DNA from: a virus
Taxonomy: Duplodnaviria; Heunggongvirae; Uroviricota; Caudoviricetes
Length of the DNA: 14,646 nucleotides
Direction: 5' to 3' (one strand)
Virus record (IMG/VR): IMGVR_UViG_2718218127_000001
Shown here: piece by piece, positions 1,861-14,646 of the stretch
Position numbering within the stretch: the first letter of the stretch is position 1
Layout: the number at the start of each line of letters is the position of its first letter
Notes under the pieces: generated by a model
Told to the model about the DNA's origin: nothing
Databases searched by the model: none
The model's input: the letters and a program-made list of their open reading frames with translations, nothing else
Made by a program: the position numbers and the translations under genes

Positions 1861-2046
1861 CTACCTACGCGGCGCTGGCTTCTTCCACTGGTAGGCAGGT
1901 GCTCGCATCATTTCGCGGAACCTGTCGCGCCGGGCTATATCGGCATTAACTGAGCGTTCTATCTCCCGTTGATCTGCCAGTGTAAGCTGGTGGCCTCCGT
2001 GCTCAAGTTTGGCGATGGTCAATAAAGCTATTTCGCGTGGTGTCAT
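1861..2046 (-). CDS. hypothetical small protein, 61 aa
   Basis: Track ORF with ATG start and an AGAGGG motif upstream. No recognisable domain. Confidence 0.3.
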   Translation of the reverse strand: MTPREIALLTIAKLEHGGHQLTLADQREIERSVNADIARRDRFREMMRAPAYQWKKPAPRR

Positions 2047-2253: not shown

Positions 2254-2279
2254 ACGCCCCGTGCGGGCGTTTTGCTTTT
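2254..2279 (+). terminator. putative rho-independent terminator on the plus strand
   Basis: Stem ACGCCC, loop CGTGC, stem GGGCGT, then TTTGCTTTT. The opposite strand has no U-tract. Confidence 0.35.
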
Positions 2280-2889
2280 ACAAAGTCAGGCCAATGCCTC
2301 TGGCTGCTTTCCCCGCCTTACGCTCAACCATGCCCGTGATTCTATCTACTACCGGACTGAATGCCTGCCAGTAAGCCACCTCCATTGCTGACAACTCTGC
2401 CCGCTTCCTGTCAAACGTAGCCCAGCGCATCCCCTTTGGTTTTGGGAACATGCGAATGTCATTAAACAGATTATTGGCAAGGTCATTGCTTCCCCATATC
2501 GCGCATCGCTGCTGGCGTATCTTCATTCGCATCCTGTCCAGTCTGTCGGCGCTCTGGCTTTTATAGTGGAGTTTCCAGCACGCCCGGCAGCCAATATCTT
2601 TCTTGCCGATATACAGCTTTGCAGCCCGTTTCATACAGTGGGGACAAACGTACCATTCCCGGACGCCATACCCGGCTTGTGTGGTCGTGGTTCTGATTGC
2701 CCGTGTAACGCCGTTGATTGTCATGGCGTAGCTGTCGGCTTGCCGGAAGGTATACAACGTTCCGCTTTCGGTCTGGGTATAAAGCTGCGTCCCCGGTTCG
2801 GCGTCCGCCAGCCTGCTACGCATGTTCGCAAGGAATGGCAACCCTATACGGGGCAGGTCGGTGATATAGCTGCGCGTTCTGTCTCTCAC
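2278..2889 (-). CDS. hypothetical Cys4 zinc-ribbon protein, 203 aa
   Basis: Track ORF. The start is GTG, preceded by a perfect AGGAGG 7 nt upstream. Contains CPHC-x14-CRAC (C-x2-C ... C-x2-C). Confidence 0.55.
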   Translation of the reverse strand: MRDRTRSYITDLPRIGLPFLANMRSRLADAEPGTQLYTQTESGTLYTFRQADSYAMTINGVTRAIRTTTTQAGYGVREWYVCPHCMKRAAKLYIGKKDIGCRACWKLHYKSQSADRLDRMRMKIRQQRCAIWGSNDLANNLFNDIRMFPKPKGMRWATFDRKRAELSAMEVAYWQAFSPVVDRITGMVERKAGKAARGIGLTL

Positions 2890-2992
2890 TGGCGGGCCTC
2901 CTGCGAATTACTGCGCATTAACTGCGAACGGTGCGCAAAAATGAATGCGAAATAATATGCGTATTTTACTGTAAATTGCGCACTATTTTGCG

Positions 2993-3110
2993 CACTGCGA
3001 ACCAATGGCGCGAGCCAGAATATTTTGGACTGCCTAAATCGAATATGGCTTCCAGCCCGCTACTGGCGCGGTTCTCTCTTCATATGGGCTTTGAGTCTGT
3101 CCAGTACAGT
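2993..3110. repeat. regulatory repeat block A (copy 1 of a duplicated ~80-110 bp module)
   Basis: Shares with block B a conserved stretch of the form ACCA-TGGCGCGA-CCAGAATATT-TGG ... CCTAAATC ... TTCCAGCC ... CTGGCGCGG, followed by a CTGT-N5-ACAG dyad (about 3097-3109). Preceded by several TGCGCA hexamers. Confidence 0.6.
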
Positions 3111-3143: not shown

Positions 3144-3521
3144 CTAACATGCGCCGTTTTTTTTAACCCTTCGCAGATCCCGCCTTGCTTGCATTGAAAC
3201 GGATCTCGCTAAACTCAGCTCAAGCCGTGCGATTCTGTCGGCATGTAGCCCCATGAGTCCGTTAATCAATGTCATCTCGCGCCATTCTTCTGTTCCCGGC
3301 GTCGGATTAGTCGCCAGTAATAGCCCGTATCTCTCAGCCATCATGAGGTTTCTTGCACGATTTCGCACCAGCGGAGAAAGCGCATCTTCTCCCTCAAACG
3401 GGAAGAATGCCCGCCTACTGCGTTCGCCATGTTTGACGGCATTAGTATTGCCCAACGGTGCGCCTGCGCCTTTCCGCTTGCCACCCCATCCGGATCTTGA
3501 TTGTTGGCTATTTTTTTTCAT
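3144..3521 (-). CDS. hypothetical basic protein, 125 aa; possible small-terminase-like or packaging-redirecting protein
   Basis: Track ORF with ATG start. The N-terminus GKRKGAGAPLGNTNAVKHG resembles motifs I associate with small terminase-type DNA-binding proteins; this is from memory and unverified. Confidence 0.5.
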   Translation of the reverse strand: MKKNSQQSRSGWGGKRKGAGAPLGNTNAVKHGERSRRAFFPFEGEDALSPLVRNRARNLMMAERYGLLLATNPTPGTEEWREMTLINGLMGLHADRIARLELSLARSVSMQARRDLRRVKKNGAC

Positions 3522-3735: not shown

Positions 3736-4086
3736 TCACGGCACAGACGAGTACCAGTAAAAGCCTGTTAGCCCGGCATCGCAGCGCTCACGATTAAGCA
3801 CACGTGGCGGGTTTTCTCTGGTCATCAACTCAAGCAAGGCATTGCTTCCCTGCGTCTCCAGTCGGTATTGCCTGTCGGTAGTGGTAATGGCATCCGGCAA
3901 TAACTTTATGGCGGCCTGGCTAAAGTCTCGCGGTGCGCCGTAAAATTGCGCATCAACAATATGAACCACATCGCCGTTAATCGTTGTCCGATAACGGTCT
4001 GGCTGTATAGTAAAGCCCCCACAATGGATAGCAGATAGTGCCGGTGCCGATGAGATCAGGACGGCTGCCAGAATGTATGGCTTCAT
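3736..4086 (-). CDS. hypothetical secreted protein, 116 aa
   Basis: Track ORF with ATG start and GGTGGGTGA upstream. The N-terminus MKPYILAAVLISSAPALSA looks like a Sec signal peptide. Two Cys residues. Its start overlaps the upstream stop as ATGA. Confidence 0.55.
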   Translation of the reverse strand: MKPYILAAVLISSAPALSAIHCGGFTIQPDRYRTTINGDVVHIVDAQFYGAPRDFSQAAIKLLPDAITTTDRQYRLETQGSNALLELMTRENPPRVLNRERCDAGLTGFYWYSSVP

Positions 4087-4724
4087 TCTTCACCCACCAA
4101 TTCATCCAGTTCAGCCAGCGTCATAGGCTTTGGTACAGGCTTGTCAATATCACCCATAATGCGCTGGAAGTTTCTGGCAGGCATATGGTTACGGTTCTCC
4201 AGTATTTTCGCCAGCGCGATAACATCCCACCATTTCAGGGCAATCAGCGCCTCAGCACGGGAAAGTGATATTCTCTGTATATCAGCATCCTCTCCACCAG
4301 CCACCCGGTATACCTCTGATAAATCACGAACATTTTTCATGTCTGCTTTCCCGGACGTTTCCATCAGTGCGTTAATATCATCCCCCGTATAGCGTGATTG
4401 CGCGACGATACCAGCCAGAGAGATAACCATATCCCGGCATACCTGGTCTATCAGACGTAATCTGGCGTCATCGTTCGAGAGGGTGTAAGACTTAACCTCA
4501 GCCACATTCCGTGGATAGTTGGCGTGCCATACCGCGACGGCTCCACACTCATCAACATCGCCGCTAAGGTAGGTTTTTGCCACTCGGTTATTACCCGATA
4601 ACGCAATTTCTACCTCCTGTATGCCGAAAAACCATGCGGCTATCGCATGACCTGCTTCGTGTATTGCGAGATGTCTGGGCCAGCGATAGCTGCCTAACTC
4701 GATAATGATGGGTTGCGTACTCAT
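4083..4724 (-). CDS. putative zinc metallopeptidase with an HEAGH motif (FtsH/M41-like active site), about 213 aa, no AAA+ or transmembrane region
   Basis: Track ORF 4083..4781. I prefer the internal ATG (MSTQPI...) because the longer form overlaps the SSB-like gene by 47 nt and the internal start has GAGAGGGAA upstream. The motif IHEAGHAIAAW is identical over seven residues to the FtsH zinc-binding signature. Confidence 0.5.
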   Translation of the reverse strand: MSTQPIIIELGSYRWPRHLAIHEAGHAIAAWFFGIQEVEIALSGNNRVAKTYLSGDVDECGAVAVWHANYPRNVAEVKSYTLSNDDARLRLIDQVCRDMVISLAGIVAQSRYTGDDINALMETSGKADMKNVRDLSEVYRVAGGEDADIQRISLSRAEALIALKWWDVIALAKILENRNHMPARNFQRIMGDIDKPVPKPMTLAELDELVGEE

Positions 4725-4734
4725 ATCTTCCCTC

Positions 4735-5196
4735 TCAGAATGGCGTTTCATCGTCGAATGGTGGGCGTTGGTCAAAATCATCAGGGGTATTATATAACTC
4801 CCATCCCGGCGCGGATTGTGTTGTGTGGCCCCTGCTGGCTCCGCTTGCTTTGACTGATTCGGCCCGCTTCCCGCCGGGGCGTACCGTTCTGGCGCTGATC
4901 ACGCTGTCGGCTACTACCTGATAACCTTGCTGTGTACCGCCATCCTTGCCCGTCCACTGATTGATCTGCATCGCTCCGGCAACACTGACTAAATCGCCTT
5001 TAACGTGTCCTGCCAGTGCGTCGGCCTGTTTGCCGAATGCCACCACGCCCAGCCAGAAAGTAACCTCTCCGCCCTCTGCTGTATGGCAGGGCAGTGCCAC
5101 CGCTAACCGTCCCATTGCCATGCTTGTACCGTTCGTTGTGGTACGGGTCTGGGGATCTGCCACCAGCCGCCCGTATGCTGAAATTTGTGCTGTCAT
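4735..5196 (-). CDS. single-stranded DNA-binding protein (SSB-like OB fold with acidic C-terminal tail), 153 aa
   Basis: Track ORF with ATG start and GAGGAA upstream. The pattern W..VVAFGK.A......KG..V.V.G.....W....G......VV parallels the E. coli SSB core, and the C-terminus ...PPFDDETPF resembles the SSB ...DFDDDIPF tail. Confidence 0.65.
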   Translation of the reverse strand: MTAQISAYGRLVADPQTRTTTNGTSMAMGRLAVALPCHTAEGGEVTFWLGVVAFGKQADALAGHVKGDLVSVAGAMQINQWTGKDGGTQQGYQVVADSVISARTVRPGGKRAESVKASGASRGHTTQSAPGWELYNTPDDFDQRPPFDDETPF

Positions 5197-5495: not shown

Positions 5496-5548
5496 TGCCC
5501 ACCTCGTTATAAGCTACCCCCCCCATAGAATCTTTTTGGGGGTGTAAT

Positions 5549-5800
5549 ATCCCTACCAATCCCTACTAACTGGCTCAGGCCACGAATGGCAAGGCTTTCA
5601 GACTGGTAGACATTCAATTTTGTTGCCCTACATAACCCTACTTATCCCTACTAAATCACTTCAACGGCATTTTACTGCCTGTTTTATTTGGTAGGGATAA
5701 GTAGGGATAAGTAGGGATAAAAATATATATCCCTACCTAGTTTAAAGCCTTGCTACGTCTGGCCTCGTCTCGTTTTTAGTAGGGCAGTAGGGATAAGTGC
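5549..5800. repeat. iteron-type replication origin
   Basis: At least 11 copies of a TAGGGATAAG / CCCTAC core with 10-bp phasing: inverted-orientation copies near 5549-5566 and 5626-5651, three perfect tandem GTAGGGATAA units at 5691-5720, an AT-rich stretch AAAATATATAT, then further copies near 5731 and 5779-5796. Lies immediately 3' of the primase gene. Confidence 0.7.
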
Positions 5801-10182: not shown

Positions 10183-10221
10183 GTCACCGCCTGAGTTTCC
10201 ACGCTCTGAAATGGCGGTGAC
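10183..10221 (-). promoter_or_regulatory. stem-loop in the 5' leader of the replication-module operon
   Basis: Inverted repeat GTCACCGCC ... GGCGGTGAC (9-bp arms, about 21-nt loop). On the minus strand it is followed by TCCTT, which could pair with the AAGGAGG of the 63-aa gene. Confidence 0.3.
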
Positions 10222-10345
10222 GTTAGCAGGGGTGGAAATACCGGACACAAAGGAAACCGGCCTACGCGAACGTAGCCCCACTAACGCCACCATAGATACA
10301 GTACGGACGAGGCCGCTGATTTGATGTGCGTAGTGATCGGACACA

Positions 10346-10367
10346 AAAAAAGACGCTTTCGGCGTCT
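10346..10367 (-). terminator. putative rho-independent terminator on the minus strand
   Basis: Minus strand reads AGACGC-CGAAA-GCGTCT followed by TTTTTTT. It sits between the regulatory module and the replication module. Confidence 0.45.
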
Positions 10368-10654
10368 GTGTCGCCCTTAGTGTGTTCGGGTTTCCACGCC
10401 CGGTTGCTGATTTTGCAGCAACGCTTGGACTATAACAGCTTTTCTCTGCTAGGTGGTCATACCAGATAAAACCGTAACCCTTTAAGAGTTTTTCCTGTGC
10501 ACGGCTCACCATCTTTTTGTTGAGGGTAAGCGCCTCGCGTACTGGTAACGGAACTCCGGGCGCTGCGGTATCAATATCAGGTTTTGTAAGGTTGCAGATG
10601 TCAACTTTTGACAACATGCCAGCCAGATTAAAGGCTTCTTTCTGGGCGGCAGGT

Positions 10655-13271: not shown

Positions 13272-13386
13272 TGCGTCACCTTTCACGCTACGCCTTAATG
13301 AGCGATTGAGTCAGGCGGTAAGGCTTCCCGCTTTTCACCCCGTCGGGCTAGACTCAATCTGTCCTCTGATTCTTTACATATCTTGG

Positions 13387-14646
13387 TTACTTCGCCTTTC
13401 TCAGCGGTGTAACGTTGTATTCCTGCCCCTGTTCCAGTGCCACCAGCAATCCCGCCCACTGTGTTAACGCGGCCCGGCGTTCATCAAAGTATTGGTGGCG
13501 GTTATAGATACCCTCCACGCCTTTAATTTTGTGGTTGAGGCATCTTTCAGCCACTACGGGATCAACGCCCAGCGCGGCTAAATGGGTGCGGGCTGTGCGC
13601 CGGAAGTCGTGAATAGTGAAATTCGGCACGTCCGGCATTTCAGCGCGAACCTTAGCCAGTGCTACGGGTAAAGTGCTTTCCTGAATATGTGGGATCATGC
13701 GGTTTTGCATCTTTCTGGCTGGCAGTACCCATGCGCTGTTGCATGAGAACGTTTTAAGCTCTCTCAGCCATTCGACGGCTGGCGGTGCTAATGGAATGTC
13801 TATAGCGTCGCCGTTTTTGCTGCGTTCCTCTGGCAAGCGCCATACGGCTTTATCAAAATCGAACTCCTCCCAGCGGGCGGCGCATAACTCCATTTTGCGG
13901 ACGCATAACGCTAACAGTAATTTGAACGTGATTTCGTTCTGGCGACTGAATCCCTTAGCCGTGCGCATGGCTTTGAATAGCTGGATTAACTCATCGCGGG
14001 TTAACCAGCGGTCACGGGCAACTTCTTTCCCTCCAGCGTCGGCAACCTCAAAGGCTGAACACGGGTTAATCTCCAGTGCGTGCCGCTTAATGCCGTAGTC
14101 AAATATGCGGCGTGTCCAGCGCAGAACGTCCGTTGCTATGGTCGGCGCTCCACGGTCAACAATACCTTTCAGCATGTCATCGATATGGCGCGGCTTCACG
14201 TCCTCCACCTTCATGCTGCCAATGCAGGGGTTTATATCTTTGTCGATACGGCGGCGGAGTATATCGGGGTGCTTCCAGCGCGGAAGGATCTGACGCTCAA
14301 AGTATTCAGCGGCAAGCTCTGAAACGCGCATAGCGTTCTTCTCTGCTTCCATCTTCGCCAGTGCTTCGGTTTTGCGCCTCTGCTTCTCTCCTGCAACGTC
14401 ATAGCCCAGCGCAACGCGAGCCGATAGCTCTTTGGCTGTCTCTCTGGCCTTTGATAGTGATAGCTCGGCATATGAGCCAATCAGCATGGCGCGGGGTTTC
14501 CCTGCGAATTTATAGCGGAATCGCCAGACGGGGGTCTGGTAGTTTTCGCGGTATGAAAGATAAAGCCCGTTACCGTCAGAGCGTCCCTCGAATCGCTCCC
14601 CGGCCTTTATCCATGCGCGGATCTGCATGTCTGTGAGTTTTGGCAT
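13387..14646 (-). CDS. int: P4-type tyrosine integrase, 419 aa; start codon at the window edge
   Basis: Track ORF with ATG at 14644-14646. N-terminal arm-binding-like region (GLYLSYRENYQTPVWRFRYKF) and a C-terminal catalytic region with the HDFRRT...H..Y tyrosine-recombinase pattern. Confidence 0.9.
   Translation of the reverse strand: MPKLTDMQIRAWIKAGERFEGRSDGNGLYLSYRENYQTPVWRFRYKFAGKPRAMLIGSYAELSLSKARETAKELSARVALGYDVAGEKQRRKTEALAKMEAEKNAMRVSELAAEYFERQILPRWKHPDILRRRIDKDINPCIGSMKVEDVKPRHIDDMLKGIVDRGAPTIATDVLRWTRRIFDYGIKRHALEINPCSAFEVADAGGKEVARDRWLTRDELIQLFKAMRTAKGFSRQNEITFKLLLALCVRKMELCAARWEEFDFDKAVWRLPEERSKNGDAIDIPLAPPAVEWLRELKTFSCNSAWVLPARKMQNRMIPHIQESTLPVALAKVRAEMPDVPNFTIHDFRRTARTHLAALGVDPVVAERCLNHKIKGVEGIYNRHQYFDERRAALTQWAGLLVALEQGQEYNVTPLRKAK

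Follow-up and report, generated by a model that had tools for sequence, protein, structure and literature searches.

The stretch of DNA analysed here (hereafter the window; 14,646 nt) extends from dinD (1-837) to the gene for a P4-type integrase (13387-14646), and close to its dinD end lies a minus-strand gene for a small, basic, cysteine-containing protein, here called ZNR, preceded by a compact array of repeats called block A (Table 1). Between its two ends the window holds int and vis homologues, genes for AlpA (a homologue of the NCBI PM1773 family), AntA, DUF4222, a PerC-like protein and SSB, an Ash/Icd ORF, variable cargo, and a primase-helicase. This enzyme has a genuine Zn_Ribbon_Prim domain and shares 38% identity with P4 alpha along its entire length. 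Searches with Rfam located a C4 antisense RNA (81 bits), isrK (72 bits) and the c4-a1b1 target at 10210-10435 on the minus strand, within the Ash/Icd ORF region, as well as an int-alpA RNA at 13292-13358 on the same strand, between int and the next gene; together these make up an RNA-based immunity module of the P1/P4 type, housed in an island that is PICI-like. Immediately after the primase gene (5540-5800) are three direct TTATCCCTAC iterons, several inverted copies of GTAGGGATAA and an AT-rich spacer, an arrangement that appears origin-like; because this region is palindromic, it also drew spurious Rfam 'MIR5070' matches on both strands.

A P4-type integrase, an alpha primase-helicase, Vis/AlpA and C4/CI-type immunity RNA together identify a P4-like satellite, while int, alpA and pri-rep, with an ori after pri and no virion structural genes, are the marks of a Gram-negative PICI. 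The window has both sets, and its backbone matches that of the E. coli PICI EcCICFT073 and also that of EcCIMP1 (PMC11773190). Homologues of sid, delta, psu and eps are absent from the window and from every ZNR locus; no P2 cos occurs in the window within three mismatches, and alignment of the lambda cos region against the whole window gave no match longer than 10 nt and no lambda cosN. By its gene content, the window is a P4-backbone, PICI-type satellite beside dinD. Across 58 genome loci, synteny within the Enterobacterales follows the order int, AlpA, further genes, primase, SSB, variable region, ZNR, o61 and island end, and the ZNR locus is present in 377 of 5426 complete E. coli genomes (about 7%). 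Direct att repeats of at least 13 bp were not found in 11 of 12 loci, and the single 13-bp match in the remaining one (L004) was taken as chance. One ZNR-type satellite from K. pneumoniae had been deposited as a circular 19.2-kb 'non-mobilizable plasmid' (CP031370.2; L103), and three more Klebsiella/Raoultella records of 17-23 kb also match ZNR; CP031370.2 and the records like it are probably excised replicating forms of the satellite, and the circular CP031370.2 is the sole, indirect hint of induction and packaging by a helper phage.

Table 1. Features in and around the ZNR gene (positions in the window; a point in the strand column means that no strand is assigned).
Feature	Position	Strand	Remarks
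o61, 61-aa ORF (phrog_7271), usual downstream neighbour of ZNR in Enterobacterales	1861..2046	-	cluster 4, 11 loci
GC-rich hairpin directly past ZNR stop codon	2253..2271	.	T-run after hairpin on + strand only
ZNR coding sequence	2278..2889	-	203 aa, pI 10.2; dN/dS; identical to WP_073528240.1
Zinc-ribbon core, C82-x2-C85-x15-C101-x2-C104	2578..2646	-	Cys conservation; AF2 places Cys after five-stranded antiparallel sheet
GTG start codon of ZNR	2887..2889	-	ATG/GTG/TTG in homologues; codons 2-22 constrained
Shine-Dalgarno AGGAGG of ZNR	2897..2902	-	7-nt spacer; overlapped by last TTCGCA hexamer
Block A, eight T(G/T)CG(C/A)A hexamers	2902..3001	.	density vs background, simulations
Perfect 10-bp inverted repeat GTGCGCAAAA / TTTTGCGCAC bracketing 18-mer	2931..2995	.	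repeat I4
Invariant 18-mer CATATTATTTCGCATTCA with -10-like TATTAT, probable core promoter of ZNR	2942..2959	-	upstream of 31 ZNR genes
o125, 125-aa upstream neighbour, Gly-rich basic motif GAPLGNTNAVKHG	3144..3521	-	weak partial TerS similarity

The ORF of 203 aa that the first-pass annotation reported at 2278-2889 is present, on the minus strand. Comparison with seven orthologues gave dN/dS values of 0.07-0.15, homologues of ZNR in the Enterobacterales form 86 clusters at 90% identity, and their alignment displays a conserved N-terminus, MRxxTRxYT..LP. Judged from this conservation, the ORF is a genuine translated gene and not a chance reading frame. Translation had been proposed to start at a GTG behind an ideal Shine-Dalgarno sequence, with the first internal methionine at residue 23, and each of these points held: AGGAGG (2902-2897) stands 7 nt from GTG (2889-2887), Met23 is the first internal methionine, and the codon aligned with this GTG is the first codon in the homologues as well, being GTG in L012-17 and L019-22, ATG in L018, L024-26 and L029-31, and TTG in L033 and L099. 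In addition, codons 2-22, which lie upstream of Met23, are under purifying selection (omega of 0.02-0.11 in divergent pairs), and the GTG start is confirmed through this comparison of homologues. The further remark that an ATG-only gene caller would miss or truncate ZNR does not apply. The exact 203-aa product is already in GenBank and RefSeq as a 'hypothetical protein' (APL75260.1 / WP_073528240.1), and PGAP annotates the 203-aa orthologue in NZ_CP104681 at full length; the gene is therefore unnamed, not overlooked. The source annotations all read 'hypothetical'.

The usual downstream neighbour, o61, is encoded on the same strand as ZNR at a median distance of 189 nt (cluster 4, 11 loci). Upstream, o125 gave weak partial matches to terminase small subunits (phrog_1889, E=0.0026; NF040601, E=6.6e-4 and far below the NF040601 cut-off), and it is also found in L001, L026, L031 and L077; by eye, a motif like GAPLGNTNAVKHG recurs in proteins of approximately 270 aa encoded immediately upstream of ZNR in distant islands. 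At 3736-4781 on the minus strand, a 232-aa ORF with a HEAGH metalloprotease-like motif overlaps a 116-aa ORF that on reading seems to have a signal peptide. Neither has a family match; both are found again in L017 and L020, where they belong to the variable cargo that separates SSB from ZNR. In four other loci (L012, 6400-9399; L018; L029; L002), the gene just upstream of ZNR encodes a tape-measure-like protein of about 1000-1100 aa with a sub-threshold match to TMP_2, an odd presence in related islands without tail genes.

The first-pass annotation had described ZNR as a Cys4 protein of the zinc-ribbon type with the arrangement CPHC-x14-CRAC. The classification stands while the gap does not, the actual arrangement being C82-P-H-C85-x15-C101-R-A-C104. 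The four cysteines are invariant in 30 close homologues (alignment A1) and invariant or nearly so among 28 distant relatives (alignment A2), although a few distant members have CxxxxC in place of CxxC. An AlphaFold2 model built with the family alignment (pLDDT 83, pTM 0.50) consists of a short helix (17-27), a five-stranded antiparallel sheet (35-81) leading into the Cys4 ribbon (82-104), and helices at 116-132 and 156-198, one of them about 40 residues long. Zinc ribbons are recognized by two conserved CxxC knuckles on beta-hairpins, and in the model strands flank both knuckles of ZNR. The protein is thus best described, from sequence and predicted structure, as one of the Cys4 zinc-ribbon type that presumably binds zinc. 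Its pI of 10.2 lies within the family range of 9.2-10.6, and the basic residues cluster in three parts of the protein (N-terminus, ribbon, and helix 116-135). A nucleic-acid-binding role fits this charge, and binding to DNA is plausible.

The structure prediction proposed in the first-pass annotation thus yielded a model, whereas the accompanying search for a fold relative, in the PDB and BFVD, returned none. Nor did ZNR match any family in Pfam (E <= 1), NCBIfam or PADLOC; matches to PHROG were insignificant (E >= 0.1), sequence searches of the PDB with two profiles gave no match, and tblastn against 50,697 phage records found nothing. The distant members likewise gave nothing beyond sub-threshold matches to generic zinc ribbons in the family libraries, and literature searches covering satellites, Rpp, DUF3987 and plasmids of Psychrobacter brought up no publication that mentions the protein. 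An exhaustive profile search nevertheless recovered 9424 cluster representatives at a threshold of E <= 1e-3, of which 2015 also passed E <= 1e-10. ZNR thus belongs to a large, unnamed family that has no Pfam or NCBIfam model. The family is basic, and most top-scoring representatives are about 200 aa long; distant members begin with MGGxGSGRW and have in common the core T.CNYGG.R.WF.CP.C..RVA.LY....F.CR.C..L.Y.SQ.E...R..KA.KIR..LG...KPKGMHW.TF.RL.

Distant members typically occur as the last, co-oriented gene of compact islands composed of int, HTH/AlpA, primase or polymerase and ZNR; such islands were seen in Gamma- and Betaproteobacteria and in Legionella, and also on metagenomic contigs of Desulfobacterota type. 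Among the 43 loci having enough sequence upstream of ZNR, 30 carry, no more than 10 kb upstream of it, a co-oriented homologue of an integrase, replication or AlpA gene. Outside such islands, members are carried by Psychrobacter RepM plasmids of 4.5-5.7 kb (hhalign probability 99.7%) and by the 10-kb Solidesulfovibrio plasmid pDCAR2 with the gene order HTH, 1131 aa, 209 aa and ZNR, and in Methylobacterium a member adjoins a serine resolvase; the Legionella member belongs to a six-gene island on a megaplasmid. The presence of members on small plasmids argues that the core function is not bound to one helper phage. On the Psychrobacter plasmids the ZNR gene adjoins an 'inovirus-type Gp2' gene. 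The loci of the Psychrobacter, Solidesulfovibrio and Legionella members are L100, L101 (2547-3038), L102 (4758-5282) and L106 (5713-6294). In Raoultella L023 (9695-10660) and at least two further homologues (P0209, P0221), ZNR carries an in-frame N-terminal fusion to an HGGxSTG domain (NF041373), whereas Klebsiella annotations list the two parts as distinct adjoining genes. Two loci carry tandem paralogues, two per locus (L024, at about 8465 and 10001; L042, 9741-11011).

Block A (2890-3010) is immediately 5' of ZNR on the gene's own strand, in agreement with the earlier placement of ZNR just downstream of it. Its centre is an 18-mer that, in the form CATATTATTTCG(T/C)ATTCA, precedes 31 different ZNR genes from several genera, including genes whose products are no more than 44-50% identical. 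Two lineages (L028, L029) have TATAAT instead of TATTAT within it, and the 18-mer is therefore most simply read as a -10 element plus start region. A consensus -35 element and a sigma-70 consensus promoter were not found for ZNR, and the promoter is thus probably factor-dependent. In IMG/VR, 13 of the 23 exact matches to the 18-mer adjoin ZNR and the other ten approximate the chance expectation; the 50,697 phage records do not contain it. Of the eight hexamers, four occupy the interval from the 18-mer to the Shine-Dalgarno sequence and are spaced about 10 bp apart, three are upstream and one is inside the 18-mer. Their density, eight in 130 nt, compares with 0.33 per 200 nt window-wide, a count of five was reached in none of 300 Markov simulations, and block A is the sole such cluster in the window.

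Similar arrays precede ZNR in many lineages in which the other genes differ (e.g., L033, L026 and L099). In L033, which has a different replication protein of 1425 aa, and in L001, whose primase is only 48% identical, the 18-mer, hexamers and ZNR still occur together. In L012 and L013, ZNR (95% identical) and the 18-mer are kept, but most hexamers, including the downstream ones, are missing; Providencia loci have other repeats in place of the hexamers. Among distant members, ZNR is often the last cistron of an operon, preceded by a short spacer or none, and repeats beside the gene are not consistently found. A second conserved box, AACGAAAC(G/C)GATA followed by TGCGCA, was noted about 100-130 nt upstream of the 18-mer in L014-L021, L028, L029 and L099; it is missing from the window, where o125 fills that place. 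With hexamers placed around the promoter and the Shine-Dalgarno sequence, the region looks like an operator that travels with its gene.

A number of other roles for this DNA were considered and rejected. Block A is set apart from a replication origin by the distinct TTATCCCTAC iterons after the primase gene and by its constancy when the primase is swapped; it gave no sign of a structured leader RNA (z = 0.33), and it matches neither the lambda nor the P2 cos site. As a target of C4 immunity RNA, the 18-mer and leader ranked only 267 of 304 windows in duplex energy. The 18-mer as a site on a helper phage was dismissed on its absence from phage genomes and on the near-chance number of its IMG/VR matches without ZNR. 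Lastly, a 14-mer in the 3' end of ZNR, AGGCGGGGAAAGCA (2305-2318, minus strand), matches the core of the P2/P4 cos site exactly. It was rejected as cos because close relatives vary within it; in addition, distant homologues use synonymous codons for an unchanged peptide RKAGKAA, and a search for the full 19-mer gave no match at up to three mismatches. The 14-mer match is, by the synonymous substitutions, a coincidence of RKAGKAA codons that are conserved as codons and not as DNA.

Given these features, ZNR is tentatively proposed to be an autoregulating, sequence-specific DNA-binding protein of the zinc-ribbon type that acts on its own control region, a reading that we hold to be possible rather than probable. 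The basic N-terminal sheet and the Cys4 ribbon would contact DNA and the long C-terminal helices would oligomerise the protein, which would bind the T(G/T)CG(C/A)A hexamers that flank its own promoter and cover its own Shine-Dalgarno sequence. Bound there, it would autoregulate its gene and build a nucleoprotein complex at the sole hexamer array of the window's island. The promoter-hexamer architecture is inherited together with ZNR, and the synteny of the locus is likewise an observation; zinc binding, DNA binding, the occupation of the hexamers by ZNR and not another protein, and any later action of the complex we infer. The layout resembles a promoter under tight, factor-dependent control with operators, and the preference follows from economy, an adjacent basic zinc-ribbon protein being the most economical binder. 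The loss of most hexamers in L012 and L013 despite a 95%-identical ZNR indicates that another protein could be the binder instead, and AlpA/Vis-type or helper proteins could serve.

Three other functions have to be weighed against autoregulation. ZNR could be a packaging-specificity factor, an analogue of the PICI Rpp or of a satellite TerS, that binds block A as a pac-like site and recruits the terminase of a helper. The gene lies downstream of primase, SSB and PerC, where EcCICFT073 carries capsid, decoration, cos and rppA, with the site just upstream; sid, delta and psu never accompany it, and ZNR is the only core gene of the minimal islands to which no excision or replication role is assigned. 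Block A is also single in the window's island, with hexamer clusters on either side of a conserved centre, and the neighbouring o125 has a short motif in common with TerS families. Against this, neither the sequence nor the predicted fold of ZNR resembles TerS or Rpp, and the 18-mer, being absent from the 50,697 phage genomes, is not a shared terminase cut site. Moreover, family members reside on plasmids of 4.5-10 kb without satellite features, and the last hexamer, over the Shine-Dalgarno sequence, is better explained by an operator. Packaging is considered an unlikely function.

ZNR could also be a helper-independent accessory of a self-replicating module that would serve the element's own DNA, for example in copy control, helicase/primase loading or maintenance. 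The block of HTH/AlpA, large primase-helicase or Rep, and then ZNR is found in chromosomal islands and in the Legionella megaplasmid island, the same linkage is seen on pDCAR2 and beside RepM on the tiny Psychrobacter plasmids, and a resolvase adjoins the Methylobacterium member; the co-oriented integrase, replication or AlpA genes in 30 of 43 loci, and a cysteine spacing equal to that of the T7 gp4 primase zinc-binding domain, point the same way. Yet the iterons at 5540-5800 are unrelated to the repeats beside ZNR, even the replacement of the primase (48% identity in L001) leaves ZNR and block A unchanged, and neither Zn_Ribbon_Prim nor any other replication family matches the protein; such an accessory role is judged decidedly unlikely. 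An effector directed at proteins or phage and not at island DNA, whether in helper interference, anti-phage defence or counter-defence, has a precedent in up2 of PICMI115, the gene after the primase with its own promoter, which is a defence gene dispensable for transfer (PMC10803314). Defence cargo does occur near the gene, with GmrSD immediately beside ZNR in L004 and RM/SIR2 genes on its flanks in L007. ZNR is, however, a conserved anchor gene and not variable cargo, and PADLOC has no match for it; an effector role seems very unlikely.

On the widest view, ZNR would represent a structurally unprecedented family of zinc-ribbon DNA-binding proteins and would complete, as a fifth member, the core gene set of minimal int-AlpA-primase islands throughout the Bacteria. 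It would supply the step at which these islands exploit a helper, marking island DNA (here via the hexamers and the 18-mer) for encapsidation by unrelated helper terminases. This extension is a doubtful one, and we advance it as a long shot; if the reading as a packaging mark were true, it would constitute a new solution to the problem that is solved by Rpp, TerS or Sid/Delta in known satellites. Integrase-AlpA-primase islands are among the commonest small mobile elements in the Proteobacteria, and ZNR, with its 9424 cluster representatives, is one of the few genes common to them. Once ZNR has a function, thousands of 'hypothetical' genes would gain an annotation and a mechanism of hijacking or maintenance not known before could come to light; the regulatory region of ZNR is conserved and readily testable.

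Comparison with known systems begins with the Ogr/Delta proteins. Like P4 Delta and P2 Ogr (PF04606), late-gene activators that work on helper and satellite late promoters by way of RNA polymerase alpha, ZNR is a small protein, predicted to bind zinc, from a satellite with a P4-type backbone, and like P4 Psid, block A is a repeat-rich region upstream of the gene. The first-pass annotation had set ZNR apart from this family, and rightly so: P4 delta, as a positive control, matched PF04606 at 6.5e-22 while ZNR gave no match, and the hhalign probability of ZNR against delta was 0.6%, indicating no sequence relationship. Ogr has the spacing C-x2-C-x22-C-x4-C in a domain of approximately 70-80 aa, whereas ZNR has C-x2-C-x15-C-x2-C in 203 aa with a sheet predicted at the N-terminus, followed by long helices; block A, when read through, showed no TGT-N12-ACA motif. 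The spacing in ZNR equals that of the zinc-binding domain of the T7 gp4 primase (C-x2-C-x15-C-x2-C), and both this domain type, including that of DnaG, and ZNR are linked to primase-helicase genes, but ZNR has no match to the Zn_Ribbon_Prim HMM.

With the terminase small subunits of phages and SaPIs, ZNR would have in common a small, oligomer-prone protein encoded beside a repeat-flanked site near the int-distal end, although ZNR matches no Pfam, NCBIfam or PHROG family and no phage record by tblastn. UP2 of the Vibrio island PICMI115 is likewise encoded behind the primase gene and from its own promoter, at the int-distal end of an island reduced to the minimum of int, alpA and prim. The likeness is one of gene position and layout; UP2 is lineage-restricted defence cargo. 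The parallel with Rpp (RppA/c1503) of E. coli PICIs extends to an island of the same backbone, a position after primase, SSB and PerC, a presumed DNA-binding activity, a unique cis site preceding the gene and a lack of phage homologues. After its replication genes, EcCICFT073 has capsid, decoration, cos and rppA, in contrast to cargo, o125, block A, ZNR and o61 in the window. Rpp proteins, which bind the helper TerS and block the helper, are, moreover, 139-154 aa with an N-terminal, TerS-like winged HTH and adjoin a lambda-like cosQ and cosN, whereas ZNR is predicted to combine a sheet with a zinc ribbon and its island has no lambda cosN. By these comparisons ZNR falls outside the Ogr/Delta, Rpp, TerS and primase zinc-binding families, and it resembles Delta and Rpp only as a small, presumed DNA-binding protein encoded at the int-distal side of a satellite, beyond the replication genes.
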